Below, piece by piece: positions 13,738-29,767 of a DNA stretch of 64,000 bases. The notes under the pieces were generated by a model, which worked only from the letters and a program-made list of their open reading frames with translations, searched no databases and had not been told where the DNA came from. Position 1 is the first letter of the stretch. The number at the start of each line of letters is the position of its first letter. The stretch is from assembly GCA_024413595.1 (NCBI GenBank), contig JAKSUC010000002.1, positions 35,335 through 99,334 of the forward strand, in the 5' to 3' direction. Made by a program: the position numbers and the translations under genes. This DNA comes from Bacteroidales bacterium. Lineage in GTDB: Bacteria > Bacteroidota > Bacteroidia > Bacteroidales > UBA3824.

Positions 13738-14781
13738 TTAGTAAATTATTTCGGTTTTGTCGGCTAAATAAGTGTTGCCAGAAACTATAACAGAGTCGCC
13801 GGCTTCAATGCCTGAAATTATTGCAATATTATCGCTATTTTCGATTGAAGTTTCAACATAACACCATCTTGCCAAACCATCTTTGGCTGTAAATACTACA
13901 GGACGATTTGAACGTAAAACCACTGCACTTTTAGGAACTGAAATAAATTCTCCAGCATTTTTACTTATTTTGATACTAACATTCATTCCTTCAAACAATT
14001 CAGAACCATTATTTACAGTAGCTTTTACGCGAACCATTCCGTTATTTTCTACAAATGGATTTATTTCTTTTATTTGACCTGTCCATTTTTTGTCGGGCAT
14101 TGAATATGCCGAAATTTCAACCTTGCCACCTACGGTAACCATGTTTAATTCATTTTCAATAACTGTAAATTCTACACACATAGAATTTTGATCTATTATT
14201 CGGCAAAATGGTTTTGAATTTGAAGTTAAATTACTAACACGGTCATTTAAATTTGCAACCACGCCACTTATTGGAGCTTTTATGGTGCTATGTTCGTAAT
14301 CGTATTTTGTTGAATTATAAGATGATAGTGATTGTAGATAACCACTTTTGATTTCAGCCAATTTTATAATATTATCTGGAATATTAGTTGAGTCGGGATT
14401 ATAACCTTGACCAATAATAGTTTCCTTCATATTTAGTTTTGATTGTTCAAGATTTGCTTGAGCCGACTCAAATTGATTTTTTAATTTATAAGCGTCTAAT
14501 TTTGCGATAGTTGTTCCTGCTTGAACATGTCTACCATTATTGGTAAAAATTTCAGAAATTGTTCCGCTTACTTCCCAATAAATATCTGCATATTTGTCGG
14601 CTGTAATTTTTCCATTGCTTACAATTTCTAAAGCAAATTGACCTTTTTTTGCAACTTCGGTTGTAACTTGTTGACGATCTTCAACAAGAATATTTTGTTG
14701 ACGTTCTTCTTCTGGCTTTTCTTTTGACGAACAAGAAGCCAAAATCAATGAGATTGAGGTTAGTATTAATCCGTATTTCAC
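13738..14781 (-). CDS. efflux RND periplasmic adaptor (MFP/HlyD family) lipoprotein
   Basis: 347 aa. GTG start (cac at 14779-14781), lipobox LILASC, and barrel-sandwich/beta-barrel adaptor-like sequence. First gene of the efflux operon. Confidence 0.8.
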   Translation of the reverse strand: MKYGLILTSISLILASCSSKEKPEEERQQNILVEDRQQVTTEVAKKGQFALEIVSNGKITADKYADIYWEVSGTISEIFTNNGRHVQAGTTIAKLDAYKLKNQFESAQANLEQSKLNMKETIIGQGYNPDSTNIPDNIIKLAEIKSGYLQSLSSYNSTKYDYEHSTIKAPISGVVANLNDRVSNLTSNSKPFCRIIDQNSMCVEFTVIENELNMVTVGGKVEISAYSMPDKKWTGQIKEINPFVENNGMVRVKATVNNGSELFEGMNVSIKISKNAGEFISVPKSAVVLRSNRPVVFTAKDGLARWCYVETSIENSDNIAIISGIEAGDSVIVSGNTYLADKTEIIY

Positions 14782-15432
14782 TTTTTTTATTTAATTAGAT
14801 GATTATTAGTTTTTTTCAAATTAATAGTTAGAATAGATTTATAATTAATTAACACGACAAACTTAGTTAATTTTTTATTAACTAACTATTTTTTGAGATT
14901 TTTTTTTAATAAAAAATGTTAAATGAAATAATGTTTTTAATTCAGTATTTAGTGTTATAAAATATAAAAAAGGAGAAAAATTTATTTTCTCCTTTTTTAA
15001 TTATTCATGAATTAACTAAAAAGCCATACCTTCCACCGAATAAACAATCGGTTTTTCTTTAGAATTTGTTTTAACATAAATTTCGCGAACAAATTCTTCT
15101 GGTTTATCGGTTTTGAAAGATACTGAAACTATTGCAGAATCAGACTTTTTAATTACAGATTTGTCAATTTTTGCAGTAGTACATTCACAAGATGTAAAAA
15201 TTGTATCAATTTTCATTTCTACTAAACTATCATTTTTCAATACAAACTGAGTTTTCATAGTATCCGAAAAAGGGAAACGTCCAAACGAAAAACGGTTTTC
15301 ATTTTGATTATCAGCAATATTTATATTTGTTGTATCAATTCCCAAACGTTCACAAATTGTACGAATATATAGGTCTTTGATTTTGGGATTTTGAACTGGA
15401 TTACCAATTAGAATTACGCGATTGTTTTCGTC
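14664..15432. repeat. segmental duplication block, copy 1 (MFP 5' end, intergenic region, terminator, DUF1573 and the thioredoxin-fold gene 3' half)
   Basis: By-eye alignment shows near-identity with 17641-18403. The 15016-15432 part is also near-identical to 21248-21659. Confidence 0.85.
14971..14993 (-). terminator. rho-independent terminator after cassette 1
   Basis: AGGAGAAAA-attta-TTTTCTCCT flanked by A6 and T6 runs. It is 23 nt downstream of the stop of the 15016..15879 gene. Confidence 0.8.
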
Positions 15433-15879
15433 AAGAAGGAAACATCTAAATTGTTCTTTATCAGGAAAATGATTTAATTTGTTAAAAGAATCATTTATAT
15501 CAATACAAGTTGGATAATTATAATCGGATGTAATAATTTCAAACAAAGCTTCACTTTGACGTTTTGGACTTATATATTTTAAAATCAAAACATTATTATT
15601 AGTAAGAGATAATATATTTTGATTTAAAGTTTTCCATTCGTGCAACTTTAATTGACAACCTATGCAACCTTTTGGATCTGTATAAGTAACAATTTTTAGT
15701 TTATTATCATTGCAATTTATCTTTAAAGTATCATAACCAGATAAAAAAATAGAGCTATCAGAAAAAATAATCTCTTTATTACTCCAATCTTTTATAAGTT
15801 GTTCTATATCATTCTTTACTTGATTTTGACAAGAAATACAAATAAATATAGACAAAATTATAAAGTAAAACTTTTTCAT
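15016..15879 (-). CDS. cassette 1: thioredoxin-fold (TlpA/redoxin-like, CxxC) lipoprotein fused to a DUF1573 domain
   Basis: 287 aa. Lipobox FICISC, the redoxin pattern KIVTYTDPKGCIGCQ and FLLDENNRVILIG, and a C-terminal DUF1573-like beta-sandwich (FSFGRF...FVLKNDS...TSCECTTAKID...). Confidence 0.7.
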   Translation of the reverse strand: MKKFYFIILSIFICISCQNQVKNDIEQLIKDWSNKEIIFSDSSIFLSGYDTLKINCNDNKLKIVTYTDPKGCIGCQLKLHEWKTLNQNILSLTNNNVLILKYISPKRQSEALFEIITSDYNYPTCIDINDSFNKLNHFPDKEQFRCFLLDENNRVILIGNPVQNPKIKDLYIRTICERLGIDTTNINIADNQNENRFSFGRFPFSDTMKTQFVLKNDSLVEMKIDTIFTSCECTTAKIDKSVIKKSDSAIVSVSFKTDKPEEFVREIYVKTNSKEKPIVYSVEGMAF

Positions 15880-16886
15880 TTATTTTCTAAATTAATTTCA
15901 TCTAAATCTAAATATCCAAGTTGAATTTCATCGTCAAATGTAAAAATTAAACGATTATTACTTTCATCATAACAGAAATTTTTAATATTATAACCAACAT
16001 CAAATGTTGAAATATACTCACCGTTTTTATTAAAAACAATGCATTTTGTTGTAATTATTGGGTTTTGCTCAAATTTTCCACCATTGTAGATACAAACTAG
16101 ATATTTATTGGTAAAAAGAGAGTTCCCAAAACATATTAAACCTTCTTCATCCCAATCTGGACCATAAATATTACTTATTAAATTACCATTAAAATCAGCT
16201 ATACTAATCAAATCATACCATATATTACATTCTGCATAAATACTATCTTTATACGAAACTGCTAAAACAAAACGATTTTGTTTAAATTCTTTATGAAAAT
16301 TATTAAATAATTCAATTTTTCCTGATTTAATATTCCATTTTCCTGTTAATGCAGTTGTTTTATTATACCCAATTTCTGCCATAACTCGACATAAAGAAAA
16401 TGTATCATTAGCGTAAATGTATTGTAGTGGATAATTGTCATTTGAGATATGGTATTTTTCAATAGGAGAAAATCTATTATTGATTAAAAGGCTATCTAAT
16501 TTATAAGCTAAAATTTCACATTTTCCACCATCTTGAACATATATTTCGCGAGTAATTTCATTCCAAGATAATTCTCCAGGAATAGTTATTTCATTTGGAC
16601 TTTGTCCTATATTTCCAAATGGTAATACATAATTAAAATTATTTTTGTTAAATAAATGAATTACAGATTCTAACGATTTCGTATCTTTTATAGCTAAATA
16701 TTCACCTATTATGTATGGTACAGAACTATTACTAAAGTAAATCGTATCTATATTAATTTTATGAATTAATTGATTTACATTAATTATATTGTTGCGTTTC
16801 GTTTGATAAATCTCAGTTTTTGAATTATTTTGACAAGCAATAGTTGTAATTAAAATAATCAAAATAAATATCTTTTTCATACTCAA
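15876..16886 (-). CDS. cassette 1: 6-bladed beta-propeller-type lipoprotein (BF3164-like family)
   Basis: 336 aa. Lipobox TTIAC and the motif FGNIGQSPNEI, shared as G-x-GP-x-E/D with the paralogs at 18864, 22127 and 28645. ATGA overlap with the downstream gene. Confidence 0.6.
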   Translation of the reverse strand: MSMKKIFILIILITTIACQNNSKTEIYQTKRNNIINVNQLIHKINIDTIYFSNSSVPYIIGEYLAIKDTKSLESVIHLFNKNNFNYVLPFGNIGQSPNEITIPGELSWNEITREIYVQDGGKCEILAYKLDSLLINNRFSPIEKYHISNDNYPLQYIYANDTFSLCRVMAEIGYNKTTALTGKWNIKSGKIELFNNFHKEFKQNRFVLAVSYKDSIYAECNIWYDLISIADFNGNLISNIYGPDWDEEGLICFGNSLFTNKYLVCIYNGGKFEQNPIITTKCIVFNKNGEYISTFDVGYNIKNFCYDESNNRLIFTFDDEIQLGYLDLDEINLENK

Positions 16887-16895
16887 AATATTAAT

Positions 16896-16940
16896 TTTAT
16901 AGTTCGCTTGTAAATATTAATATCACAAGCAAACTATAAA
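16896..16940 (-). promoter_or_regulatory. intercistronic stem-loop directly 3' of peptide gene 1
   Basis: The 16-bp arms at 16896-16911 and 16925-16940 pair fully except for one position. That position is C.A on the plus strand but G.U on the minus (sense) strand. Confidence 0.65.
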
Positions 16941-16958
16941 ATATTAATTTATAATCAA

Positions 16959-17183
16959 TTATCTAGGACATAAATTTGCATTTAATAAGTCATTACGATG
17001 ACCATTACAATCACATCCGCCAGTCCAATCTTTACAACCATATGGACAACCACTTTCCCCTTGTGCCAAAAGTTCTACATTTTCCATTTGTAATTCAGAC
17101 AAATTATTATTATTATTGTTTATTTGGAATACGCCAAACACTACTGCAACTGCAACTGCTACCGATATAATTAATTTTTTCAT
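16959..17183 (-). CDS. cassette 1: NVEALA-motif small Cys-rich secreted peptide
   Basis: 74 aa: MKKLIISVAVAVAVVFGVFQ, poly-N, LSELQMENVELLAQGE, then the core SGCPYGCKDWTGGCDCNGHRNDLLNANLCPR (5 Cys). Confidence 0.8.
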   Translation of the reverse strand: MKKLIISVAVAVAVVFGVFQINNNNNNLSELQMENVELLAQGESGCPYGCKDWTGGCDCNGHRNDLLNANLCPR

Positions 17184-17505
17184 TTTTGTATAAAATTTGT
17201 GAATTTTCTCAGACTATGATAAATTTTTATCTCTAAGAAAAATTAATAAATAAATTTATAAAAAAAGATACACTTAAAAATTTTAGTTAAGTGTCGTTAT
17301 CGCACATTAATTTCTTGAATTATGTTGACAACTTTTTGGATGGTTAATACGTTTAAGTTTTCGTAGCTTTATTATTTAAAGTTAGACAATAGGGGAAATG
17401 GTTGAGAAGTTTGGAGGACGTCCGCAATCACTCCCCTTTTTTTATAACCATATTTTTCTTAATGATTACGAAACAAATGTATAGTAGTAATTTTACATTT
17501 CCAAA
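17184..17505 (-). promoter_or_regulatory. promoter plus ~280-nt conserved 5' leader of peptide gene 1 (copy A)
   Basis: On the minus strand, TTTG (17502-17505) and TAcaTTTG (17474-17481) are separated by a 20-nt spacer. The leader holds two conserved hairpins: ACACTTAA/TTAAGTGT at 17270-17294, and AGGGGA...TCCCCT at 17391-17437 followed by T7 on the plus strand. It is roughly 90% identical by eye to 20838-21157 and 24086-24409. Confidence 0.6.
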
Positions 17506-17640
17506 TATTTTTTCATCTTTTTTTTATTTTTTTGCGTATTGAATATAAAATATTGATTATTAATTAGTATTATACAAAAAATAGAATAATATTCGAAAAT
17601 ATATTGATTACACAAATTTAAATAACCACATTTTTTGTAG

Positions 17641-17758
17641 TAACTTGTTGACGGTCTTCAATAAGAATGTTTTGTTGACGTTCTTTTTCTGGCTTTTCTT
17701 TTGAAGAACAAGAAACCAGAATCAAAGAGATAGTTGATAGTATTAATCCGTATTTCAC
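17641..17758 (-). pseudogene. duplicated 5' fragment of the MFP adaptor gene
   Basis: The minus strand reads (GTG)KYGLILSTISLILVSCSSKEKPEKERQQNILIEDRQQVTT, then diverges and stops. It matches the first ~41 codons of the 13738..14781 gene, and the upstream region is duplicated as well. Confidence 0.85.
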
Positions 17759-17941
17759 TTTTTTATATATTAGATGATTATTAGTTTTTCAAATTAATAG
17801 TTAAAATAGATTTATAATTAATTAACACGATAAACTTAGTTAATTTTTTATTAATAAACTATTTTTTGCGATTTTTTTTAATAAAAAATGTTAAATGAAA
17901 TAATGTTTTTAATTCAATATTTAGTGTTAAAAATATAAAAA

Positions 17942-17964
17942 AGGAGAAAAATTTATTTTCTCCT
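17942..17964 (-). terminator. rho-independent terminator after cassette 2 (duplicate of 14971-14993)
   Basis: Same AGGAGAAAA-attta-TTTTCTCCT hairpin with flanking A and T runs. Confidence 0.8.
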
Positions 17965-17986
17965 TTTTTAATTATTTATGAATTAA

Positions 17987-18187
17987 CTAAAAAGCCATAC
18001 CTTCCACTGAATAAACAATAGGTTTTTCGTTAGAATTTGTTTTAACATAAACTTCACGCGAAAACTCTTCAGGTTTATCGGTTTTGAAAGTTACAGAAAT
18101 AATTGCAGAATCAGACTTTTTAATTACAGATTTGTCAATTTTTGCAGTAGTACATTCACAAGATGTAAAAATTGTATCAATTTTCAT
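17987..18187 (-). CDS. cassette 2: DUF1573 C-terminal segment, cut off from the thioredoxin-fold ORF by an in-frame TAA
   Basis: 66 aa, nearly identical to residues 222-287 of the cassette 1 fusion protein. It is in frame with 18209..18862 across a TAA at 18209-18211. Confidence 0.6.
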   Translation of the reverse strand: MKIDTIFTSCECTTAKIDKSVIKKSDSAIISVTFKTDKPEEFSREVYVKTNSNEKPIVYSVEGMAF

Positions 18188-18208
18188 TTCTAATAAACTA
18201 TCATTTTT

Positions 18209-18862
18209 TTAAACAAACTGAGTTTTCATTGTATCCGAAAATGGAAAACGTCCAAATGAAAAACGGTTTTCTTTTTGATTTTCAGCAATATTTATATTTG
18301 TTGTATCAATTCCCAAACGTTCGCAAATTGTACGAATATATAGGTCTTTGATTTTAGGATTTTGAACTGGATTGCCAATAAGAATTACGCGATTGTTTTC
18401 GTCTAATAAAAAACAATGAAAACGTTCATCTGACGGAAAATTATTTAGTATGTTTAGAGAATCGTTATAATCAATGAAAATAGGATAATCAAAACCACTA
18501 GTTTTAAGAATAGTTTTGAAATTTCGTGTCTGAATAATATCATCTTTAGGATTAAATGTTATAATAGTTGGACATTTGTTATCAGAAAGTTTCATAATTT
18601 GTTTAATAAAATTATTCCAAACTTCTAATTTTAATTTACAACTTGAACATCCAGAAGAATCTATATATCTAAGCAATTTTACTTTACTTTTGACTTCTAA
18701 TATATTATTGTCTTTATTTGTTGTATAAAAATTTATATCTTGTGGAAATTCTATTTTTTTATTTGTCCATTGCGCAAATAAATCATAAGATTTTTTTGCT
18801 GTATCATTACAAGATATTAATGTTATAATTAAGACAAATATTAATACAAATTTAGTTTTCAT
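18209..18862 (-). CDS. cassette 2: thioredoxin-fold (CxxC) lipoprotein, truncated within the DUF1573 domain
   Basis: The likely start is MKTKFVLIFVLIITLISC (ATG at 18860-18862), since the track ORF extends to 18889. CxxC motif SGCSSCKLKL. The C-terminal half is identical to cassettes 1 and 3. Confidence 0.65.
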   Translation of the reverse strand: MKTKFVLIFVLIITLISCNDTAKKSYDLFAQWTNKKIEFPQDINFYTTNKDNNILEVKSKVKLLRYIDSSGCSSCKLKLEVWNNFIKQIMKLSDNKCPTIITFNPKDDIIQTRNFKTILKTSGFDYPIFIDYNDSLNILNNFPSDERFHCFLLDENNRVILIGNPVQNPKIKDLYIRTICERLGIDTTNINIAENQKENRFSFGRFPFSDTMKTQFV

Positions 18863-18863
18863 T

Positions 18864-19859
18864 CTATTCGTATTTGAATTTAACAACACTAAATTCTGGT
18901 GTTACAGCATAAATACATTTCTTGTTTTCATCAATACAAAAATTAAAAATTTGAGTATCCAAATTAAATATTTTAATTGGATTACCTTCGTAATCAAAAA
19001 CAAATATTTCATTAGAATATTCTTCATCAGCTTCAATAGGTTTTCCACTATATAAAGCCATAATATAATCAGAAGTTGATGCACAGCAAGGATAAGTATC
19101 TCTTTCAATATCACCTTTATGAGGCAAGTTCATTGGACCAATAATTCTTTTATATAATGTTAAATCACTATTATAAATATCAATCATATCATTAATTGAA
19201 TATGCAATTACAATTTTATCACGATGAGAATTATAGCTAATAGTACTATGTAAATAATTAGACCAATTATGTTCTAATGAAAATTCAGGATATAAAACAT
19301 TAGGATATGGAGCATACTTTATATTACTTGTTAATTTGGTATCAAATTCACACAACATCGTATCATTATTAGAATATAATGAAGTAATTAAATTTCCATT
19401 GTTATTCTGAATAAATGATGTTATAGTTTGATCAAATTGAATTTCTTCAATAGGAAGACAACCAATAGTTGTTACAAAGTCATCATATTTATATTTTCTT
19501 ATTAATCGAAAATGAGGCTCTGCAGCCATTACATAATCATCTGTAACAAATATGAAATTACATTGAACACTTTCATTAGGTCCCAATCCACTTGGAACGT
19601 TATATGTTAGAAAATTATTATTATTTAAATTAAATGTTTGAACAAAATAATCTCCTGATCTATTAATTATAAACAAAAGAGAATCTTTTAAATGAATTGA
19701 TAATGGATTCCAAATTGTATCAAGGTTCATTATTTCTCCATGTAATTTTACTTCCTTGAAATCTTCTCTATTTATTCTTATATAATCATTATTCGAGGTA
19801 TTGTTATTACATGAAGAGAAAATGATTAACGAAAATAATAATATTGTTAGCTTTTTCAT
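18864..19859 (-). CDS. cassette 2: 6-bladed beta-propeller-type lipoprotein
   Basis: 331 aa. Lipobox IFSSC and motif SGLGPNESVQC. Paralog of the 15876, 22127 and 28645 genes. Confidence 0.6.
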   Translation of the reverse strand: MKKLTILLFSLIIFSSCNNNTSNNDYIRINREDFKEVKLHGEIMNLDTIWNPLSIHLKDSLLFIINRSGDYFVQTFNLNNNNFLTYNVPSGLGPNESVQCNFIFVTDDYVMAAEPHFRLIRKYKYDDFVTTIGCLPIEEIQFDQTITSFIQNNNGNLITSLYSNNDTMLCEFDTKLTSNIKYAPYPNVLYPEFSLEHNWSNYLHSTISYNSHRDKIVIAYSINDMIDIYNSDLTLYKRIIGPMNLPHKGDIERDTYPCCASTSDYIMALYSGKPIEADEEYSNEIFVFDYEGNPIKIFNLDTQIFNFCIDENKKCIYAVTPEFSVVKFKYE

Positions 19860-19861
19860 TT

Positions 19862-20509
19862 TTATATATTTTTAAGTTTATATGCTAGAATTTTTAACGA
19901 CTTTGTATTCATTAATATTCTATTAATCAATTGTTTAGAAATCAATTTAGTTTCTTGAATATTAAGAATTTGATTTAATAAAGATTGAGAAATATTTGCA
20001 TTTTTATCCACAATTAATACAAGTGGCGTTTCTTTATCATAAATCATTGGTTTTGTGTTAAATTTATAAAATTTAAAATATTCATTAGGTGAAGAATTTG
20101 GAATTTTATATTGAATATACATTTTTAAATTACTAAACACAAATAAAATATCATTATTTCTATATCCAGTTTTAAGAATATCAATATTTTCATTACATAT
20201 AAACTTACCAAAACCGATAGATAATTTTTGCCTCATTTCATAATTTTCATTATAAATAATTTCAGGCGTAGTAAAATTGCTTGATTTTTTTAAATCATAA
20301 TAGTTAATAGAAATATTCCCTATTAATGACTTAAAATCAATTGTTTGTTCTATAGAATTAAAAATAGCTTTTTTATAAATTTCGTATGTCTTTAAAAATT
20401 CTGCACTATATACTTCTTCAGTTTCTTCTTGCTCTTGAGCTAATAAATACTTATTATTAAATAGTAATAATAAAAGAATAAATGTATTTAATATAATTTG
20501 CTTGTTCAT
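19862..20509 (-). CDS. cassette 2: secreted accessory protein of unknown function
   Basis: Likely ATG at 20507-20509 (MNKQIILNTFILLLLLF...LLAQ signal). The C-terminal stretch PLVLIVDKNANISQSLLNQILNIQETK aligns with PLALVLNKKNNIPEDIINRVLSVKDTK of the 23155..23748 protein. Confidence 0.5.
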   Translation of the reverse strand: MNKQIILNTFILLLLLFNNKYLLAQEQEETEEVYSAEFLKTYEIYKKAIFNSIEQTIDFKSLIGNISINYYDLKKSSNFTTPEIIYNENYEMRQKLSIGFGKFICNENIDILKTGYRNNDILFVFSNLKMYIQYKIPNSSPNEYFKFYKFNTKPMIYDKETPLVLIVDKNANISQSLLNQILNIQETKLISKQLINRILMNTKSLKILAYKLKNI

Positions 20510-20523
20510 ATTATTTAAATATA

Positions 20524-20559
20524 ACAATTTTGGTAATAATCAATTATTACCAAAATTGT
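20524..20559 (-). promoter_or_regulatory. intercistronic stem-loop directly 3' of peptide gene 2
   Basis: Perfect 16-bp arms ACAATTTTGGTAATAA / TTATTACCAAAATTGT with a 4-nt loop. Confidence 0.7.
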
Positions 20560-20576
20560 ATTAAATTATCATTATT

Positions 20577-20837
20577 TTACATATGTCCTGTAATACATGG
20601 ATATGGACAACTACCATTGCATTTACTCCCACTTTGCGCACCAACACCTACAACATCACACCATTTATTATTGAAAAAAGCATTCTTACAACAATTATTA
20701 ATTATTTCACCATAATCAGCTAATGCTTCTAAATTATCCATTTGTAATTCACTCAATTGATTATTATTTTGATTAGCTTGGAATACACCAAATGCACTTG
20801 CTGCAATAAAAGCTACAGCGATAAATAATTTTTTCAT
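20577..20837 (-). CDS. cassette 2: NVEALA-motif small Cys-rich secreted peptide
   Basis: Likely start MKKLFIAVAFIAASAFGVFQANQNNNQLSELQMDNLEALADYGE (ATG at 20835-20837), then the core IINNCCKNAFFNNKWCDVVGVGAQSGSKCNGSCPYPCITGHM (6 Cys). Confidence 0.8.
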   Translation of the reverse strand: MKKLFIAVAFIAASAFGVFQANQNNNQLSELQMDNLEALADYGEIINNCCKNAFFNNKWCDVVGVGAQSGSKCNGSCPYPCITGHM

Positions 20838-21157
20838 TTTTGTTAAAATTTTGCATTTTCTTAGACTTTGAATATTTTTTACGTCCAAGAAAAAAATTAA
20901 TAATTTAATAGATAAAATAAATCCACTTAAAAATATAAATTAAGTGTCGTTATCGCACATTAATTCCTTGAATTATGTTGACAACTTTTTGGATGGTTAA
21001 TACGTTTAAGTTTTCATAGCTTTTTATTTAAAGTTAAACAATAGGGGAGATGGTTGAGAAGTTTGGAGGACGTCCGCAATCACTCCCCTTTTTTTATAAC
21101 CATATTTTTCTTAATGATTACGCAACAAATGTATAGTAGTTATTTTACATTTCCAAA
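20838..21157 (-). promoter_or_regulatory. promoter plus conserved 5' leader (copy B)
   Basis: On the minus strand, TTTG (21154-21157) and TAcaTTTG (21126-21133) with a 20-nt spacer. Same hairpins as copy A. Confidence 0.6.
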
Positions 21158-21247
21158 TATTTTTTCAATATTTTTTTGTTTTTTTAATATGATATATAAT
21201 TTTTTGATTATAAAATATTTAGTTTAACTGTTTTATTAAATTATGTA

Positions 21248-21451
21248 TTAATTTACAGCCACTCCATCTACTATATAGACGATCGGTTTTTCTTTAGAAT
21301 TCGTTTTTACATAAACTTCACGCGAAAATTCTTCTGGTTTGTCGGTTTTGAAAGATACTGAAACTATTGCAGAATCAGACTTTTTAATTACAGATTTGTC
21401 AATTTTTGCAGTAGTACATTCACAAGATGTAAAAATTGTATCAATTTTCAT
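21248..21451 (-). CDS. cassette 3: DUF1573 C-terminal segment after an in-frame TAA
   Basis: 67 aa, near-identical to 17987..18187 except for the last residues (VYIVDGVAVN). In frame with 21473..22126 across a TAA at 21473-21475. Confidence 0.6.
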   Translation of the reverse strand: MKIDTIFTSCECTTAKIDKSVIKKSDSAIVSVSFKTDKPEEFSREVYVKTNSKEKPIVYIVDGVAVN

Positions 21452-21659
21452 TTCTAATAAACTATCATTTTTTTAAACAAACTGAGTTTTCATTGTATCC
21501 GAAAATGGAAAACGTCCAAATGAAAAACGGTTTTCTTTTTGATTTTCAGCAATATTTATATTTGTTGTATCAATTCCCAAACGTTCGCAAATTGTACGAA
21601 TATATAGGTCTTTGATTTTGGGATTTTGAACGGGATTGCCAATAAGAATTACGCGATTG
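21248..21659. repeat. homogenised 3' block, copy 3
   Basis: Near-identical by eye to 15016-15432 and 17987-18403. Confidence 0.8.
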
Positions 21660-22126
21660 GAAGAATCGAGAAGGAAACAATGTAAATATTCTTCTGGAGG
21701 AAAACTATTTAAATTAAATATTTCATTTTTTTGATCTATAACAACAGGATGTTCAAAATAAGCCATTCTTAAATTAGTATGAATTTCTCTAATTTCATTT
21801 TTTTTATTTTTAGGATTAATTATAAATAATTTAGCGCACCTATTATTTGTTTTTGCATCAATATAACTAAAAAAATTATTCCAATCAGTTAAACGCATTT
21901 TGCAATTTGTACAGCCAGTTGAATCAATGTAAAACAATATTTTTAGTTCATTATTACTATTATACTCAATTGTATCAGTACCTAATTTCGTAAATATTAA
22001 ATTAGGTAATTTTATTGTTTTATTTGACCATTCATTAACAAGATTTATATAATTCTGTTTATTGTTACAAGAAAATAGTAAACATAATATAAATACAAAT
22101 GAAATTAAACTATAAAATTTATTCAT
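21473..22126 (-). CDS. cassette 3: thioredoxin-fold (CxxC) lipoprotein, truncated within the DUF1573 domain
   Basis: 217 aa. Lipobox LLFSC and CxxC motif TGCTNCKMRL. The divergent N-terminal half is followed by a C-terminal half identical to the other copies. Confidence 0.65.
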   Translation of the reverse strand: MNKFYSLISFVFILCLLFSCNNKQNYINLVNEWSNKTIKLPNLIFTKLGTDTIEYNSNNELKILFYIDSTGCTNCKMRLTDWNNFFSYIDAKTNNRCAKLFIINPKNKKNEIREIHTNLRMAYFEHPVVIDQKNEIFNLNSFPPEEYLHCFLLDSSNRVILIGNPVQNPKIKDLYIRTICERLGIDTTNINIAENQKENRFSFGRFPFSDTMKTQFV

Positions 22127-23179
22127 TTATTTATAATTAAATTTAACAATACTAAACTCTGGAGTTTCGGCAATTGCATAAATTGAATTATTTTCTTCAT
22201 CAACAGCCAAACCATATATGTCAATATTTAAATTGAAAACCTTAAAAGGATTTCCTTCATAATCAAAAACTAATATTTGATTTGGAATAGGATTATCTGG
22301 TGCAGTTTTCCCCTCATAATAGCAACACCAAATATATTTTTTTGTTAAACAACATAATACACATGATCTTTTAGTAGAAGAATTAGGACTTAAAAAGTTA
22401 TCACGTTCTACCATTAATGGTTCAAATCCTATTGGTCCGTGAACACGAGATATTAAATTTAAATCATTATCATAAATATCAAATATGTCTGTAAAAGCAT
22501 AAGGAACAACTATTCGTTCGTTGCTATCATTATAATAAATTCGATTTTGGAATGCAAATTTGTTCTCAATGTCTTTATAATTTTTAGAACTTTCCAAAAT
22601 AGGATATGGAGTATGTTTATCTATTTTATTACCTAAACTATCAAATAATGTTATGGTATTACTTGTATCAATATGACTTGCACCAACTAAATTATTATTA
22701 GATAACAAAACCATTGCGGTTGGATAATAATCTTTTGCTTCGTATGTTGCTATATTACAAATATGCGATTTTTCTAAAAAGTCTTTTTTAGAATATTTCA
22801 TTAGTTGATTTGTTTGTATACTAAATGACAAAATATAATCTTTCATAATCTGCAAAGACCAACAATCAAGACTTTCATTTGGACCAACACCAAAAGTAAT
22901 ATTTTCACATTTTTTTAATTTTGTCTCAAAATCAAATACTTGAGCAAAATTTTCTTGGGATTTATCTATTAATATTAGATTATTATCTTCAATAAAAATT
23001 TGAGTTGGTTTCCAAATCGAATCAAGATTAACAATCTCATAATCAAGATTTTCAATTGATTGAAAGTCATCATAGGTTATATTTTTGATTGACTTATCAA
23101 GATTATTTTCCGAATTGCAACTACAAATAAATATAGCAATTATTATATAAAAATTTATTTTTCCCATGTTTTTACACAA
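22127..23179 (-). CDS. cassette 3: 6-bladed beta-propeller-type lipoprotein
   Basis: 350 aa (start may be M5 at 23167). Lipobox FICSC and motif FGVGPNESLDC. Confidence 0.6.
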   Translation of the reverse strand: MCKNMGKINFYIIIAIFICSCNSENNLDKSIKNITYDDFQSIENLDYEIVNLDSIWKPTQIFIEDNNLILIDKSQENFAQVFDFETKLKKCENITFGVGPNESLDCWSLQIMKDYILSFSIQTNQLMKYSKKDFLEKSHICNIATYEAKDYYPTAMVLLSNNNLVGASHIDTSNTITLFDSLGNKIDKHTPYPILESSKNYKDIENKFAFQNRIYYNDSNERIVVPYAFTDIFDIYDNDLNLISRVHGPIGFEPLMVERDNFLSPNSSTKRSCVLCCLTKKYIWCCYYEGKTAPDNPIPNQILVFDYEGNPFKVFNLNIDIYGLAVDEENNSIYAIAETPEFSIVKFNYK

Positions 23180-23748
23180 AATGTTAATATTTCAAAATAA
23201 GTAGTATTATTTTTTATATAATTTATATCATTTTTATTTATTTCTTTAGTATCCTTTACTGATAAAACACGATTAATAATATCTTCTGGAATATTATTTT
23301 TTTTATTTAATACTAAAGCTAAAGGTATATATCTATTTGTTTTAAAATCTTGTATTTCAAATGGATATAAAATTATATTAATATTTTGATGCTCTCTTTT
23401 AAATGGAATATATAATGTTCCACGTGCTGTTGTTGTCATAACACAACAGATATCATTTTGATCTATTGCTAACGCAAAAATATGACTTAATGAACTATCA
23501 AAATCTTGATAAAAATAAGTTTTCCCATGAAAAAAGTCACTTTTTTCTTTTAAATTATAAGAAAAAACAAATAATCTTGCTTTTGCATTTAATATAGGAA
23601 TTTTATATTTTATATTACTGTTTTTTAGAATTATTGCGTGCGGATTTACAGATCCAGCTTGTAAACCAAATGATGCAACAGCAACTTCTCCTTGGGCATA
23701 AACATTATAACTTAAAAATACAAATATTAAAATAAAAAATATCTTCAT
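23155..23748 (-). CDS. cassette 3: secreted accessory protein of unknown function (homolog of 19862..20509)
   Basis: 197 aa with signal peptide MKIFFILIFVFLSYNVYAQ and C-terminal similarity to the cassette 2 accessory protein. Confidence 0.5.
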   Translation of the reverse strand: MKIFFILIFVFLSYNVYAQGEVAVASFGLQAGSVNPHAIILKNSNIKYKIPILNAKARLFVFSYNLKEKSDFFHGKTYFYQDFDSSLSHIFALAIDQNDICCVMTTTARGTLYIPFKREHQNINIILYPFEIQDFKTNRYIPLALVLNKKNNIPEDIINRVLSVKDTKEINKNDINYIKNNTTYFEILTFCVKTWEK

Positions 23749-23767
23749 AATAATACGAATAATTTAT

Positions 23768-23802
23768 AATTCTGTTATTGATATTAAATCAATAACAGAA
23801 TT
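23768..23802 (-). promoter_or_regulatory. intercistronic stem-loop directly 3' of peptide pseudogene 3
   Basis: Perfect 15-bp arms AATTCTGTTATTGAT / ATCAATAACAGAATT with a 5-nt loop. Confidence 0.7.
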
Positions 23803-23843
23803 AATCTATAATAAATAGCCTATTATATAATAAGCAAAATTTT

Positions 23844-24085
23844 TTAATTAGGATAACTATCAGGACAACGCTCAGTATATCCAGTACTTGTATACATTAT
23901 ATCACAATACCAATAAGGATTATAATGACATACCATACGACATCCATATGAAGCACTTTCACCTTGTGCCAAAAGTTCAGCATTTTCCATTTGTAATTCA
24001 CTCAATTGATTATTATTTTGATTAGCTTGGAATCACCAAATGCACTTGCTGCAATAAAAGCTACAGCGATAAATAATTTTTTCAT
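23844..24085 (-). pseudogene. cassette 3: NVEALA-motif peptide gene with a 1-nt deletion (frameshift)
   Basis: The span is 242 nt, which is not a multiple of 3. Compared with gene 2 (ggaatacaccaaatgc), this copy reads ggaatcaccaaatgc. The conceptual repair gives MKKLFIAVAFIAASAFGVFQANQNNNQLSELQMENAELLAQGE followed by SASYGCRMVCHYNPYWYCDIMYTSTGYTERCPDSYPN. Confidence 0.8.
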
Positions 24086-24409
24086 TTTTGTTAAAATTTT
24101 GCATTTTCTTAGACTTTGAATATTTTTTACGTCCAAGAAAAAAATTAATAATTTAATAGATAAAATAAATCCACTTAAAAATAAAAATTAAGTGTCGTTA
24201 TCGCACATTAATTCCTTGAATTATGTTGACAACTTTTGGATGGTTAATTCGTTTAAGTTTTCATAGCTTTATTATTTAAAGTTAGACAATAGGGGAAATG
24301 GTTGAGAAGTTTGGTAGACGTACGCAATCACTCCCCTTTTTATTTTTATAACCATATTTTTCTTAATGATTACGTAACAAATTTATGATAGTAATTTTAC
24401 ATTTCCAAA
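24086..24409 (-). promoter_or_regulatory. promoter plus conserved 5' leader (copy C)
   Basis: On the minus strand, TTTG (24406-24409) and TAaaTTTG (24378-24385) with a 20-nt spacer. Same hairpins as the other copies, with clustered substitutions at the tip of the GGGGA hairpin. Confidence 0.55.
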
Positions 24410-24538: not shown

Positions 24539-26230
24539 TTAATTATTAGTCTTAAATAGTTTTTCCATATTTTCCACTTTACTTCGCATTTCGCGAGTAG
24601 CTTCTGACTCAATTTTAATAAATTTATTCATAATTATTTCATATTCAGCCTTTCTGTTTTCAGGCTTAAAATAATTTTCATTTGCATATAACAAATATAA
24701 TAAGTAATGAGGATAAAGTCTATTCGGTAATCTGTGAGACGAACGAATATAATATTTTTCAGCTTCAGAATAATTATTTAAGTTTTGATAACATTCTCCA
24801 ATAACATTAAATATCATAGGATCAGAAAGATAATTAAGACATTTGTTTAATTCTATAATAGCATCTTGATATTTTTCTGTTTTATAAAGCGAATGTCCAT
24901 ATTCATAAAGAAATCTTCCATTCCAATCCATTTTATCTGACATTTCAGCATAATATTTGGCTGCTTTTGTGTAAACTTTCATATTATAAAACATTTGCGA
25001 TTTTTCCCATTTTTGCATTAAATCAATGCGTTCTGAATAAATTGGACGTTTTATAATCATAAATATTGCTAAAATAGAAAGTAAACTAGCTAAAATAATT
25101 TTATGATAAACATAATTTATGTTTTCTGGAATAATTAATCCAATAGTTAAAATAATCAGAAGTACCACAAATGCAGGTATTTGCATTGGGTAAGATGCAA
25201 AGCAAAAAACTAACAACGAAATTATTCCACCAACAAATTGAAATCTCTTATTTTTATGGGCAAAAAATATTGCAAAAACTAAAAATGCAATAATCAATAA
25301 AGTTAACGGAATTCCATATAATATTGCAAATTGTAAATATTCATTAAACGCATAATCAGGAGAAGTGGCAATATTTTCTTCGTTACCAATATTAAAATAT
25401 CCTTTTTTTTCAATAATGTTAGCAAAATATTTTTCTTGAGCGTTGCCGTATGCAGGTGAAAAAATGTCGTGCCCCGAAATTGGAGAATCCATTACAGCTA
25501 AAGTAGAAATTTTCCATAAAAATAATCTACCATTTGCCGACTCGCTTTTCACTTTCCAAATACCTATTCCAGCTAAAAATAATATTATAACACCTATTAT
25601 TAATAATAATTTTTTGTTGATTTTTATTTTGTCAAGATATTTTTTTAAAATTCCTGAGCATAATAAAACATATATGCAACCAAAACAACCTGAAATCCAA
25701 CTTGTTCTACTCATGGTTGATGGCAAAACAATTATTAATAAAACTAATGTAAAAATTAATATATAATATTGCGATAATATATTGATTTTCTGAAATTTAG
25801 TAATATTTTCAGATTTATTTAAATTTTCTTTTTTCACTTTGATATTCAGCCACATATTTAATGCAATAGGAAGTGTAATTGCCAAATATCCGCCTAAAGG
25901 TCCTGGATTATAAAACGAACCTGTTAATTTAAATATAGAGTGATTAGAATAAGAAAAACCGTATAATTGCATCAAAGAATAAAATGCTTCTATACAGCCA
26001 ACTATAACAATACACCATTCTAAAGTGGATAAAATATGTTTTTTTTCAACAAAAAAAATTGCTACTCCTATAATAATAATTGGAAAAATTCCACGTAAAC
26101 AAAATGAATTCCATTGAGAAATTTGCATTATTTCGTCGGATAGTTTTGCTACTCCATAATTTAGCATCAACCAATATATTACGCTAAAAAAGATTAATCC
26201 ACAAAATATTTTTCTAAGTGTATCAGTCAT
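24539..26230 (-). CDS. O-antigen ligase/polymerase-like (Wzy_C-type) membrane protein with C-terminal TPR repeats
   Basis: 563 aa with about 10 TM helices, a loop reading PSTMSRTSWISG, and a soluble TPR-like C-terminus (AAKYYAEM..., YQDAIIELNKCL..., YSEAEKYYIRS). Confidence 0.55.
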   Translation of the reverse strand: MTDTLRKIFCGLIFFSVIYWLMLNYGVAKLSDEIMQISQWNSFCLRGIFPIIIIGVAIFFVEKKHILSTLEWCIVIVGCIEAFYSLMQLYGFSYSNHSIFKLTGSFYNPGPLGGYLAITLPIALNMWLNIKVKKENLNKSENITKFQKINILSQYYILIFTLVLLIIVLPSTMSRTSWISGCFGCIYVLLCSGILKKYLDKIKINKKLLLIIGVIILFLAGIGIWKVKSESANGRLFLWKISTLAVMDSPISGHDIFSPAYGNAQEKYFANIIEKKGYFNIGNEENIATSPDYAFNEYLQFAILYGIPLTLLIIAFLVFAIFFAHKNKRFQFVGGIISLLVFCFASYPMQIPAFVVLLIILTIGLIIPENINYVYHKIILASLLSILAIFMIIKRPIYSERIDLMQKWEKSQMFYNMKVYTKAAKYYAEMSDKMDWNGRFLYEYGHSLYKTEKYQDAIIELNKCLNYLSDPMIFNVIGECYQNLNNYSEAEKYYIRSSHRLPNRLYPHYLLYLLYANENYFKPENRKAEYEIIMNKFIKIESEATREMRSKVENMEKLFKTNN

Positions 26231-29685: not shown

Positions 29686-29716
29686 AAATAAAATATTTTT
29701 AATTAGTGAAATATTT

Positions 29717-29767
29717 TTAATTAGTGAATAAATATATGATTTTATAATATATTTATTCACTAATTAA
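29717..29767 (-). promoter_or_regulatory. intercistronic stem-loop directly 3' of peptide gene 4
   Basis: Perfect 21-bp arms TTAATTAGTGAATAAATATAT / ATATATTTATTCACTAATTAA with a 9-nt loop. Confidence 0.7.

Follow-up and report, generated by a model that had tools for sequence, protein, structure and literature searches.

TlpA, ResA and StoA, the described proteins most like the thioredoxin domain considered here, are typically reductases. Thioredoxin-like domains are also known in fusion with an NHL propeller: in NHLRC2 the two form a functional unit with a Cys motif in the interdomain cleft (PMC6107167), and SOQ1 is likewise such a fusion. DUF1573, in turn, has selenoprotein members with UGC at the CxC-type motif (PMC9312934, PMC13188914), which argues for redox activity. 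In the Bacteroidales locus described here, the thioredoxin-like protein and the NHL-type propeller are encoded by adjacent separate genes, next to the gene for a small peptide of the Pfam NVEALA family (PF14055). The initial annotation regarded this family as having no assigned function, and the name 'NVEALA' was found in no paper of the literature searched; the family comprises 5,882 clusters at 50% identity.

A mosaic array of cassettes

The ORF list of the window (the whole 64,000-nt stretch analysed) contains three head-to-tail minus-strand cassettes at ~14,966-24,409, with the gene order and the abutting or overlapping junctions (ATGA at 15876-15879; 18862/18864; 22126/22127) found as first described. 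The order is promoter, ~290-nt leader, peptide gene, hairpin, optional accessory gene (cassettes 2 and 3 only), propeller gene, thioredoxin gene and terminator. A fourth peptide and propeller pair (28645-30087) lies outside the region covered by the initial annotation and had been missed there. The non-coding elements and a gene fragment within the array, all on the minus strand, are as follows.

14966..14998, minus: intrinsic terminator 3' of cassette 1, 15-bp stem and U run (fold z-score -6.5)
16894..16942, minus: perfect 20-bp hairpin separating the peptide and propeller genes of cassette 1 (inverted repeat; -24 kcal/mol, z -6.9)
17184..17505, minus: conserved leader (~290 nt) of cassette 1 with Bacteroidetes-type promoter-like motif at 17474-17505 (85-87% identity with the remaining two copies)
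17618..17758, minus: N-terminal fragment of the downstream MFP gene, 46 aa, between cassettes 2 and 1 (MFP HMM 2e-18)
17937..17969, minus: intrinsic terminator 3' of cassette 2 (exact repeat of 14966-14998)
20524..20559, minus: 16-bp hairpin past peptide gene 2 (self-BLAST; fold z -4.1)
20838..21157, minus: conserved leader of cassette 2 with promoter-like motif at 21126-21157 (self-BLAST, alignment)
23767..23803, minus: 16-bp hairpin past peptide gene 3 (self-BLAST; fold z -5.2)
24086..24409, minus: conserved leader of cassette 3 with promoter-like motif at 24378-24409 (self-BLAST, alignment)

Each cassette is probably its own transcription unit. The promoter-like motif, TTTG-N20-TAcaTTTG in cassette 1, precedes each of the four peptide genes, and that of peptide 4 at 30220-30251 has the -33 element TTTGGAAAT in common. 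The cassette leader matched no Rfam family at gathering thresholds.

The array had been regarded as a tandemly triplicated operon, but self-BLAST instead gave alternating conserved and variable blocks. Two blocks per cassette are 85-95% identical, one consisting of the promoter, the leader and the peptide pre-pro region, the other of the 3' half of the thioredoxin gene and DUF1573, and in the DNA between them no similarity across cassettes was detectable by the same comparison; the propellers encoded there are 25-33% identical among cassettes and the peptide cores are unalignable. The array is a mosaic in which divergent cassettes are bordered by conserved recombination flanks, not a plain triplication, and the 46-aa MFP fragment, which is taken in by a 90.6% identical repeat (14660-15518 / 17637-18489, self-BLAST), is a scar from insertion or duplication of a cassette. 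Diversification affects the core, the accessory protein, the propeller and the CxxC-bearing half of the thioredoxin protein in concert, while the leader and the C-terminal half of the thioredoxin protein stay constant, suggesting that the partners are specific for their core and that recombination in the constant flanks swaps cassettes. Recombination alone would hardly explain the constancy, since a constant 35-aa thioredoxin segment is kept as protein between genomes with only 29-63% identity at third codon positions, pointing to functional constraint.

Peptides and their partner proteins

The genes of the three cassettes and of the additional pair are listed below.

15016..15879, minus: cassette 1 thioredoxin(CIGC)-DUF1573(SCEC) lipoprotein, the only intact fusion (DUF1573, 61.3 bits)
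15876..16886, minus: beta-propeller lipoprotein of cassette 1, start codon probably the ATG at 16880 (AF2 model, pLDDT 90.1)
16959..17183, minus: NVEALA pre-pro-peptide 1, 74 aa, 5 Cys in the core (PF14055, 37.8 bits)
17987..18187, minus: remnant of DUF1573 in cassette 2, cut off from its thioredoxin domain by a nonsense codon, 66 aa and lacking a signal peptide (92% identity with the C-terminus of copy 1)
18209..18862, minus: cassette 2 thioredoxin(CSSC) lipoprotein, truncated by TAA at 18209-18211
18864..19859, minus: cassette 2 beta-propeller lipoprotein (PF15869 TolB_like, 73.7 bits)
19862..20509, minus: cassette 2 secreted accessory protein, ~215 aa (homologous to accessory protein 3)
20577..20837, minus: NVEALA pre-pro-peptide 2, 86 aa from ATG, 6 Cys (PF14055, 36.0 bits)
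21248..21451, minus: cassette 3 DUF1573 remnant (ORF list, alignment with copy 1)
21473..22126, minus: cassette 3 thioredoxin(CTNC) lipoprotein, same TAA at 21473-21475 (weak NCBIfam StoA_CxxC match, 0.0015)
22127..23179, minus: cassette 3 beta-propeller lipoprotein (PF15869 TolB_like, 64.3 bits)
23155..23748, minus: cassette 3 secreted accessory protein, 197 aa (homologous to accessory protein 2)
23844..24085, minus: NVEALA peptide 3 pseudogene, split in two ORFs (repaired form PF14055, 35.4 bits)
28645..29760, minus: propeller-like lipoprotein 4, probable start near 29685, no thioredoxin gene (iterated propeller HMM; GxGPxE motif aligns)
29800..30087, minus: NVEALA pre-pro-peptide 4, 95 aa, 6 Cys (PF14055, 30.0 bits; local HMM 3.6e-22)

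Peptides 1, 2 and repaired 3 exceed the Pfam gathering cut-off of 27 bits, bearing out their earlier assignment to NVEALA. Each precursor begins with a hydrophobic segment of Sec type, signal or anchor, continues with a pro-region that is acidic, amphipathic and conserved, 'LSxLQxEN(V/I)EALA', and ends in a hypervariable core (30-60 aa) that is rich in aromatic residues and usually has 4 or 6 Cys. Because an aromatic residue often occupies position -3 of the predicted SPase-I site past the hydrophobic segment, the N-terminus may be either a signal that is cleaved off or an anchor. In 115 family cores, 8.7% of the residues are Cys, with 4 as the most frequent count (66/115) and an even count in 82%, and several cores have odd counts, as peptide 1 does with 5. 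The abundance of Cys and its mostly even number are compatible with disulfides and with a dedicated CxxC partner.

For that partner, the thioredoxin fold and the active sites CIGC, CSSC and CTNC proposed earlier were recovered: the family profile matches StoA (5e-6), and the AF2 model of copy 1 (pLDDT 92.7) matches ResA/DsbE/Prx and a PapD-like Ig domain in Foldseek, with the CxxC at the N-terminal end of a helix. Pfam's thioredoxin-type models (Redoxin, AhpC-TSA and similar) gave no match to the thioredoxin halves, even with the threshold relaxed to E<=10. The CxxC is invariant in the thioredoxin family and the CxC motif of DUF1573 nearly so. The fusion itself did not hold for all copies, because an in-frame TAA common to thioredoxin genes 2 and 3, where copy 1 has TTG (15238-15240), falls ~20 residues into DUF1573. 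Of the earlier proposal of a dedicated oxidase or isomerase, 'oxidase' is not established given the resemblance to typical reductases.

TolB_like matches identify propellers 2 and 3, while propeller 1, which has no Pfam match, is identified by homologues that carry PF17170/PF15869, by a family profile that matches NHL proteins and BF0058, and by the 6-bladed NHL-like fold of its model, so that the earlier propeller call stands. Propeller 4 also has no Pfam match, and propellers of this superfamily are found alone as well (Parabacteroides). Inspection of signals gave lipoboxes in all propeller and thioredoxin proteins and SPase-I-type signals in both accessory proteins, in line with the lipobox and secreted proteins first described. 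Accessory protein 2 has no match in Pfam or PDB; its homologues are encoded at the same position in two other loci (L001, L012).

Disabling mutations are present in two of the three cassettes, leaving only cassette 1 intact. In peptide gene 3, alignment with copy 2 shows a 1-nt deletion in the signal region (within 24025-24043), and this frameshift reflects either decay of the gene or a sequencing error.

Recurrence in other genomes and neighbouring genes

The order peptide, propeller, thioredoxin recurs in ~50 other loci, often as arrays. Upstream sequence of 1.6 kb or more was available for 35 non-redundant genes of the thioredoxin family; an NVEALA peptide is encoded no farther than 3.2 kb upstream in 26 of them, and in 23 the gene immediately upstream, on the same strand, is a propeller gene. 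Both counts are lower bounds because the propeller HMM misses divergent members; loci fetched by the peptide alone all have an adjacent propeller. Thus the three gene types form a real conserved module. Triads and tandem arrays occur in dozens of independent loci in Bacteroidales of rumen, termite, mouse and human gut, including isolate assemblies of Bacteroides sp. 224, Dysgonomonas reticulitermitis and Parabacteroides goldsteinii. In our window the array is flanked by the following genes.

6076..9177, minus: second RND transporter in the efflux operon downstream, 1033 aa (Pfam ACR_tran 7.7e-84)
9174..10667, minus: TolC-like outer-membrane efflux protein OEP (Pfam OEP 5.1e-28)
10660..13701, minus: RND transporter, 1013 aa (Pfam ACR_tran 6.3e-157)
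13738..14781, minus: lipoprotein MFP (periplasmic adaptor) belonging to the RND pump, the next gene downstream after cassette 1 (Pfam HlyD_D23 1.2e-20)
24539..26230, minus: polytopic membrane protein with a Wzy_C (O-antigen-ligase-like) domain and TPR at its C-terminus, adjoining the array on its upstream side (Wzy_C 6.3e-12, TPR_2)

The MFP-RND-OEP-RND order is also found 3' of cassettes in L004 and L014, MFP orthologues lie downstream of cassettes in L001, L004, L012, L013, L014, L020, L029, L051 and L066, and Wzy_C/TPR orthologues are present in 8 of the 18 non-redundant loci that span 8 kb or more and in L066. Frequent neighbours elsewhere are an S26 peptidase, a ~650-aa transglutaminase-like lipoprotein, a Wzy_C/TPR protein, an RND pump and a GerE regulator. 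Among rumen MAGs the linkage to RND and Wzy_C genes could partly reflect shared ancestry, and the triad occurs without these neighbours in L006 and L016. The system is larger than the three-gene cassette, taking in the flanking Wzy_C/TPR protein and the MFP-RND-OEP-RND pump and, elsewhere, also the S26 peptidase, the transglutaminase-like lipoprotein and the GerE regulator, none of which three is in the window. The Pfam scan, which covered all window ORFs of at least 120 aa and, of the smaller ones, only peptide genes 1, 2, 4 and repaired 3, returned no rSAM, LanM, YcaO or C39/ABC genes, in agreement with the reported absence of known RiPP-type genes.

A proposed folding pathway

With moderate confidence, we read the locus as an array whose polymorphic cassettes belong to a widespread and uncharacterised peptide system of Bacteroidales, with a putative disulfide folding pathway. 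Most likely the system makes disulfide-bonded secreted peptides. The precursor would be exported by Sec to the periplasm, where the cognate NHL-type propeller lipoprotein may bind the core and the TlpA-like CxxC lipoprotein, aided by the CxC motif of DUF1573, may form or shuffle disulfides. The pro-region would then be removed, candidates being the S26 peptidase and/or the transglutaminase-like lipoprotein encoded elsewhere, and the adjacent pump may export the mature peptide through the outer membrane. The most likely end use is interbacterial antagonism or signalling. The cassettes of this gut or rumen Bacteroidales genome are probably swappable, each peptide having its own propeller and thioredoxin-like lipoprotein.

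Mosaic organization of the array

The locus, which lies on a 131-kb contig of a metagenome-assembled 'Bacteroidales bacterium' (locus tags MJ211_008xx) and has a GC content of ~23-26%, is a damaged, mosaic case of a Bacteroidales peptide system that is real and large and has apparently not been studied. Gene order, gene junctions, lipoboxes, the secreted accessory proteins and the CIGC, CSSC and CTNC motifs were all found as the initial annotation had described them, and the genes are arranged as follows.

26230-24539, minus strand: Wzy_C/TPR membrane protein, at the upstream end of the gene order
After the Wzy_C/TPR gene, minus strand: cassette 3, then cassette 2, each with peptide, accessory, propeller and thioredoxin genes
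17618-17758, minus strand: 46-aa fragment of an MFP gene, between cassettes 2 and 1
Between the MFP fragment and the efflux operon, minus strand: cassette 1, with peptide, propeller and thioredoxin-DUF1573 genes
14781-6076, minus strand: efflux operon (MFP, RND, OEP, RND), 3′ of cassette 1

The second RND gene is directly followed, also on the minus strand, by a 318-aa ORF (5035-5991) that matched no family and had no homologue among 31 homologous loci from other Bacteroidales genomes (L001-L031).

The array had been taken for a tandemly triplicated operon. Three cassettes are indeed present, but the mosaic pattern of identity rules out a simple recent triplication, only two blocks per cassette being conserved in self-BLAST.

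14660-15518, 17637-18489 and 21212-21712: block A, the 3′ half of the thioredoxin gene with DUF1573 and downstream DNA, ~91-92% identity
17034-17560, 20727-21248 and 23940-24501: block B, the promoter-like element, 290-nt leader and peptide pre-pro region, 85-95% identity

The 2-2.5 kb of DNA between the blocks showed no similarity between cassettes. At the protein level the propellers are 25-33% identical between cassettes, the two accessory proteins 28% identical to each other, and the N-halves of the thioredoxin proteins 36-38% identical, as against 94-97% for their C-parts; the DUF1573 remnants share 89-92% identity, the peptide leaders share 66-90%, and the peptide cores are essentially unalignable. 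The core, the accessory protein, the propeller and the CxxC-bearing half of the thioredoxin protein diversify together against constant flanks, an argument for partners that are specific to each core.

In cassette 2, block A extends over a terminator into the MFP gene, of which it includes the initial ~40 codons; this MFP fragment is a scar indicating that cassettes were added via recombination or duplication spanning the 3′ flank. A homologous locus from another genome (L042) has fragments of an S26 peptidase gene behind each of its four cassettes, the last fragment running off the contig end:

2734-2907 of L042: S26 peptidase gene fragment
4922-5095 of L042: S26 peptidase gene fragment
7674-7895 of L042: S26 peptidase gene fragment

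Fragments of the 3′-flanking gene at cassette junctions thus look like a recurrent signature of cassette addition. The thioredoxin homologues closest to those of this array, P0002 and P0004, belong to one assembly, GCA_024500545.1.

Each of the four peptide genes is preceded, in the correct orientation, by TTTGGAAAT-N-TAnnTTTG, which we call promoter-like from its position, its orientation and the common extended -33 element; the sigma-A motif TTTG-N17-21-TAnnTTTG is not enriched window-wide (11 observed vs 6.7 expected). Perfect hairpins of 16-20 bp lie 3′ of peptide genes 1-3 (z-scores -4.1 to -6.9), and a canonical terminator follows cassettes 1 and 2. Together these signals would fit one transcription unit per cassette, in which the hairpin after the precursor gene may set the stoichiometry.

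17184-17473, 20838-21125 and 24086-24377, minus strand: 5′ leader of ~290 nt

Between cassettes, the coding regions are less conserved than this leader. Its sequence includes a GGGGAG...CUCCCC-type stem, and also a CACUUAA...UUAAGUG hairpin with a U run behind it, which may be an attenuator; the folding z-score of the leader is weak (-2.45). Rfam, run on the whole window, returned tRNA alone (a tRNA gene lies at 63202-63275, plus strand), with no match of the leader to a riboswitch or leader family at gathering thresholds. A search of loci L001-L031 by nhmmer with the three leader copies gave no match, nor did the JGI metagenome collection contain an exact 22-nt pattern taken from the leader.

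NVEALA peptides and their lipoprotein partners

Peptides 1 and 2 score 37.8 and 36.0 bits against PF14055 (gathering cut-off 27 bits), and peptide 3 scores 35.4 bits once its frameshift is repaired, so the family membership proposed for the three stands. A fourth peptide (30.0 bits) and its propeller had been overlooked; this pair carries the extended promoter-like element of the other cassettes and has no thioredoxin gene.

29800-30087: peptide 4, NVEALA family, 6 Cys, 4 kb upstream of the array
28645-29760: propeller 4, a propeller-like lipoprotein paired with peptide 4

The window peptides fit the family form of ~60-140 aa with a hydrophobic N-terminus and then N-[VI]-E-A-L-A (64-142 aa among the members listed). 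When 1.84 billion representative proteins were searched with an NVEALA profile, 5,882 clusters were found at E<=1e-3 and 1,375 at E<=1e-10, the clusters being defined at 50% identity. The design is constant: a basic N-terminus, a hydrophobic stretch of ~16 residues and a short polar linker lead to an acidic amphipathic motif, (L/M)S(D/E)LQxEN(V/I)EAL(A/G), often followed by xGE, and then to a hypervariable core. In two alignments (A5 and A6) N35 does not vary, and E37 is invariant or almost invariant. Among 115 cores, 66 have four Cys, 18 six, 14 five and 7 two, 82% of the counts being even; Cys accounts for 8.7% of core residues, and aromatic residues account for 11%. In our own reading of the motif, EALA and EALG would satisfy the -3/-1 small-residue rule of S26 peptidases, and the hydrophobic positions appear spaced like those of double-glycine leaders, some members having EALGDGG.

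The statement of the initial annotation that NVEALA proteins have no assigned function agrees with the literature searched: no paper in the library names the family, and queries on the peptide, the Pfam/DUF families, BF3164 and Bacteroid propellers, bacteriocins and thioredoxins found no functional study. Its report that known RiPP/bacteriocin genes are absent was also borne out, because the cassette genes and the ORFs of 120 aa or more in the window included no C39-ABC exporter, rSAM, LanM/LanKC, YcaO or lasso B/C gene, and none of these enzymes was seen in the related loci examined.

PF15869 (TolB_like; cut-off 29.2 bits) matched propeller 2 (73.7 bits) and propeller 3 (64.3 bits), and propellers 1 and 4 had no Pfam match even at E<=10. 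Homologues of propeller 1 carry PF17170/PF15869, and its AF2 model (pLDDT 90.1) is 6-bladed and NHL-like; NHL propellers came on top in Foldseek, where DUF4221 (3s9j) and BF0058 (4raa) also matched, and the propeller family profile gave sequence-level matches to NHL proteins/repeats and to 4raa. The only invariant motif in the propellers is the NHL-like GxGPxE, and conserved catalytic residues were not found. Of the predicted 6-bladed, BF3164-like propeller, the fold is supported by the model of propeller 1 and by TolB_like in propellers 2 and 3; no NCBIfam model for BF3164 lipoproteins or for propellers matched any of the three propellers scanned (1-3) at E<=0.1. NCBIfam gave no meaningful match for any cassette protein, and the accessory proteins had no Pfam match and no PDB sequence relative.

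The thioredoxin fold is supported by a 31-homologue profile that matches B. subtilis StoA (3erw) at E 5.1e-6 and by an AF2 model (pLDDT 92.7) for which Foldseek returned, at E ~1e-5, ResA, DsbE, Prx (peroxiredoxins) and Bacteroides thiol-disulfide oxidoreductases. C72 and C75 of the CxxC are invariant in 31 sequences, and the model places this motif at the N-terminus of a helix that begins with residue 73. Redoxin and AhpC-TSA, the Pfam families suggested for this domain, did not fit: neither they nor Thioredoxin_8 or any other thioredoxin-type Pfam model matched any of the three N-domains at E<=10; NCBIfam StoA_CxxC hit copy 3 at 0.0015 (18.5 bits), far below its cut-off. DUF1573 (PF07610, cut-off 26.1 bits), which had been assigned to every copy, was detected in copy 1 (61.3 bits, residues 193-285, SCEC present), where PapD-like domains, those of HYDIN and P. 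gingivalis 2qsv, were the structural matches of the Ig domain model, but is not intact in copies 2 and 3. Across the family, the DUF1573 S-C-x-C, the lipobox Cys and C146 are nearly invariant. DUF1573 selenoprotein members carry UGC at the CxC-type motif (PMC9312934, PMC13188914), so the CxC is probably redox-active.

15150-15260: 35-aa segment CFLLDxxNRVILIGNPVQNPKIKDLYIRTICERLG, thioredoxin protein residues ~146-180

This segment is nearly invariant in proteins that are only ~40% identical overall. Its third codon positions are 29-63% identical between genomes, showing that the constraint acts on the protein and ruling out that the C-half of the thioredoxin protein is conserved merely by recombination; the 80% third-position identity within the window suggests local homogenisation or a recent common origin.

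The window contains three more large extracytoplasmic thioredoxin-domain proteins (35618-36961 and 37049-38617, minus strand; 54268-55725, plus strand), two with DUF4369 (one also with DUF5106) and AhpC-TSA/Thioredoxin_8, and the third with AhpC-TSA/Thioredoxin_8 only. The many TlpA-like paralogues of this genome could also act on Cys-rich substrates. Other genes in the window were these.

38823-44972, plus strand: 2049-aa bacterial alpha-2-macroglobulin (MG2, A2M and bMG10 domains)
47312-49189, plus strand: MbnP/MbnH-like pair with no apparent relation to the cassettes, namely an MbnP-family protein (2.8e-18) and, after it, a di-haem cytochrome c peroxidase/MauG-family protein (1.3e-36)
52329-53558, minus strand: long Lgt (prolipoprotein diacylglyceryl transferase)
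58362-59609, minus strand: T9SS plug-domain protein

The system in other genomes and the lesions in this locus

Homologous loci were fetched via the thioredoxin protein, the peptide or propeller 1, and 66 of them were annotated with locally built HMMs. The order peptide-propeller-thioredoxin recurs in Bacteroidales from the rumen and from termite, mouse and human guts. For 35 non-redundant thioredoxin genes with enough upstream DNA, an NVEALA gene lay upstream in at least 26 and a propeller gene directly upstream in at least 23, so the three gene types, whose co-occurrence the initial annotation had proposed to check, recur together in these loci. In loci seeded with the peptide, the propeller was immediately 3′ of the peptide in all five non-redundant cases and the thioredoxin protein was present in three of the five; since propellers also occur alone, without a peptide, we take peptide and propeller to be the core pair. 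Tandem arrays are common (L034, L037, L042, L059, L029 and L067); that of Dysgonomonas reticulitermitis (L067, 349-16663) lines up six or more NVEALA/propeller cassettes and includes a stand-alone 116-aa DUF1573 gene. Neighbouring genes in the 18 non-redundant loci of at least 8 kb are listed below.

Recurrent neighbours of the cassettes, with the share of these loci in which each occurs
S26 signal-peptidase-like protein: 11/18
~650-aa lipoprotein with a transglutaminase-like core and an F5/8-type-C domain: 9/18
Wzy_C/TPR protein: 8/18
MFP: 8/18
RND: 7/18
GerE-type regulator: 4/18

In Bacteroides sp. 224 (L066, 6422-20306) a single cluster contains the whole set, and one additional propeller gene lies between RND and OEP. 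These two assemblies and that of Parabacteroides goldsteinii are from isolates, so genetics should be feasible. Tables for B. thetaiotaomicron list BT0662 as an O-antigen ligase family protein, BT0663 as hypothetical, BT0664 as a 6-bladed propeller, BT0667 as lepB and BT0669 as an RND adaptor, the expression changes of BT0662-BT0669 under iron limitation being mostly not significant (PMC10434189). This order of annotations suggests that BT0662-BT0669 is the same system.

In the present locus, a 1-nt deletion in the signal region, within 24025-24043, splits peptide 3 into ORFs 24002-24136 and 23844-24005; peptides 1, 2 and 4 have intact reading frames. Thioredoxin genes 2 and 3 have in common a TTG-to-TAA change ~20 residues into DUF1573, at 18209-18211 and 21473-21475 respectively, leaving thioredoxin-only lipoproteins of 217 aa and 66-aa DUF1573 remnants that lack the first strands and a signal peptide. 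These lesions, and the fact that no S26, transglutaminase-like or GerE gene was found in the window, make it possible, if short of probable, that cassettes 2 and 3 are non-functional relics and that at most cassette 1 and the fourth pair are active, or that the lesions are artefacts of a metagenome assembly in which repeats of 0.5-0.9 kb with 85-95% identity are prone to mis-assembly. On the other hand, the propeller, accessory and thioredoxin N-domain ORFs are all still open, the promoter-like motifs, hairpins and terminators are kept, and the truncated thioredoxin copies 2 and 3 may stay functional, because thioredoxin-only homologues of ~170-220 aa are frequent elsewhere (21 of 50 clusters).

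Known systems and possible functions

The system has partial counterparts among known ones. Pediocin PA-1 with PedC and the Bacteroidales bacteroidetocin clusters with a thiol oxidoreductase are class II bacteriocins with a thioredoxin-like accessory protein. Like them, the NVEALA cassettes combine a conserved leader and a variable Cys-containing core with a dedicated CxxC thioredoxin-fold protein, which in those operons is thought to secure the correct disulfides, and have a hairpin after the precursor gene. Unlike them, they have no double-glycine leader and no C39-ABC transporter; the precursor has a Sec-type N-terminus, the partners are lipoproteins including an obligate NHL propeller, and S26, transglutaminase-like, Wzy_C/TPR and RND genes are linked. 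The heat-stable enterotoxin (ST) of E. coli is a pre-pro-peptide exported by Sec, oxidized by periplasmic DsbA and released through a TolC-dependent efflux pump. The logic that we propose is alike (signal peptide, pro-region, multi-disulfide core, periplasmic oxidation and exit by a tripartite pump), the role of RND in the NVEALA system being suggested by gene linkage only; however, ST uses the housekeeping DsbA and MacAB-TolC, and has neither cognate propeller and thioredoxin lipoproteins nor polymorphic cassette arrays. NVEALA cassettes thus resemble secreted disulfide-rich peptide/bacteriocin systems in logic, with no machinery in common.

The pairing of propeller and thioredoxin fold also has precedents. 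In NHLRC2 a Trx-like domain and a 6-bladed NHL propeller form a cleft with a Cys motif, and a ligand site has been proposed there (PMC6107167); in SOQ1 a Trx-like domain is fused to an NHL propeller as one functional unit (bioRxiv 10.1101/2021.03.16.435614). The NVEALA system likewise pairs a CxxC-type Trx-like domain with an NHL propeller, but as separate, translationally coupled lipoproteins beside the gene of the presumed substrate peptide, with an extra DUF1573 CxC domain and with sequence homology at the fold/repeat level only. The mau cluster of methylamine dehydrogenase has the same shape of triad, a small exported Cys-rich polypeptide (MauA), a propeller (MauB) and a Trx-fold assembly factor (MauD). 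The sequence of MauA and its cofactor Trp residues are conserved and MauB is 7-bladed, whereas NVEALA cores are hypervariable and their propeller has six blades and no conserved catalytic residues; a small subunit and a 7-bladed heavy subunit of methylamine-dehydrogenase type are therefore not what we find here. In genome organization, the 'orphan' modules of CDI and Rhs loci are similar in having constant flanks, variable cassettes, tandem stacking, fragments of flanking genes at the junctions and some decayed modules, although the proteins are unrelated and in the NVEALA system an entire 2-2.5-kb operon varies as a unit, made up of the peptide core, the accessory protein, the propeller and the thioredoxin N-half.

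Beyond this anatomy, every mechanistic step is one that we infer. By analogy with NHLRC2 and SOQ1, the NHL propeller lipoprotein would capture the exported peptide, and the CxxC/CxC lipoprotein would form or shuffle its disulfides; the S26 and papain-fold transglutaminase-like proteins are candidate peptidases for the pro-region, and the RND/OEP pump is a candidate exit through the outer membrane, as in the ST route. As a whole, what the initial annotation had observed was partly confirmed, and its interpretation as a secreted-peptide system is partly supported. We tentatively propose, as a possibility and not as the probable answer, that the NVEALA cassettes are a new, Bacteroidota-specific class of ribosomal peptides that are matured wholly outside the cytoplasm, expelled by RND pumps and exchanged between strains for competition or communication. 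In such a class, Sec-exported precursors would meet a lipoprotein machine consisting of the NHL propeller for substrate capture, the Trx-CxxC/DUF1573-CxC redox pair, the papain-fold transglutaminase-like lipoprotein and/or an S26 leader peptidase, and the Wzy_C/TPR protein; the RND pump would expel the matured peptides, and whole peptide/propeller/thioredoxin specificity modules would be swapped between strains by recombination at the constant flanks, giving thousands of strain-specific disulfide-rich peptides for gut and rumen competition or communication.

The main rival makes the propeller an immunity or decoy protein. The peptide would then be a bacteriocin-like toxin. The propeller, possibly with the accessory protein, would not be a maturation factor but would confer immunity to its cognate peptide, or would be a receptor variant, itself resistant, by which the peptide is sequestered at the envelope; arrays would be collections of immunity cassettes in which toxin genes are free to decay. 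The divergence of the propellers fits this, the leader that generic chaperones would recognise being constant, and so do the frameshifted peptide gene of cassette 3, whose accessory, propeller and thioredoxin N-domain ORFs remain open, and the solitary propellers; the arrays with fragments of flanking genes (MFP here, four times S26 in L042) also have junctions resembling those of the orphan toxin-immunity arrays of CDI and Rhs loci. We nevertheless consider it unlikely. The propeller gene nearly always follows the peptide directly and is translationally coupled to the thioredoxin gene, which fits a maturation complex too; the fused Trx-NHL proteins suggest joint handling of a substrate; and the usual immunity proteins of small peptides are membrane proteins and not 340-aa propellers.

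Alternatively, the NVEALA protein could stay in the envelope, anchored or periplasmic, as a small disulfide-rich subunit or ligand of the propeller that serves, for example, surface variation or sensing and not secretion. In many cases a good SPase-I site is missing from its hydrophobic N-terminus, position -3 being aromatic, peptide and propeller are an obligate gene pair, and mau clusters join the same kinds of protein. This reading seems improbable to us, because cores so variable in length and sequence are unlike a conserved enzyme subunit, because the propellers have only the NHL-like motif as an invariant one and no conserved catalytic residues, and because linkage to S26, the transglutaminase-like protease-fold lipoprotein and the RND/OEP exporter points to processing and export. 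Very improbable, in our view, is a buffer against metal or redox stress, in which the peptides would bind metals or electrophiles and pass them to the RND pump while the thioredoxin lipoprotein keeps them reduced. The array does adjoin the MFP-RND-OEP-RND operon, whose adaptor matches a CusB/HlyD-type barrel-sandwich model, and the thioredoxin domain is like those of the reductase-type TlpA and ResA; but the cores have no common metal-binding spacing of Cys, His or Met, their hypervariability and the cassette arrays are unexpected for a metal chaperone, and the triad is also found without any RND pump.

The analysis places the NVEALA peptides, ~5,900 clusters at 50% identity across gut, rumen and termite Bacteroidales, in a multi-gene system that is conserved and also comprises their cognate propeller and redox lipoproteins, and this context offers, for thousands of 'hypothetical' genes, a hypothesis that is concrete and can be tested. 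Secreted disulfide-rich effectors, if that is what the peptides are, would form a major and unexplored pool of molecules for strain-specific antagonism or signalling in the microbiome, and would exemplify peptides matured wholly outside the cytoplasm and possibly exported by RND pumps.
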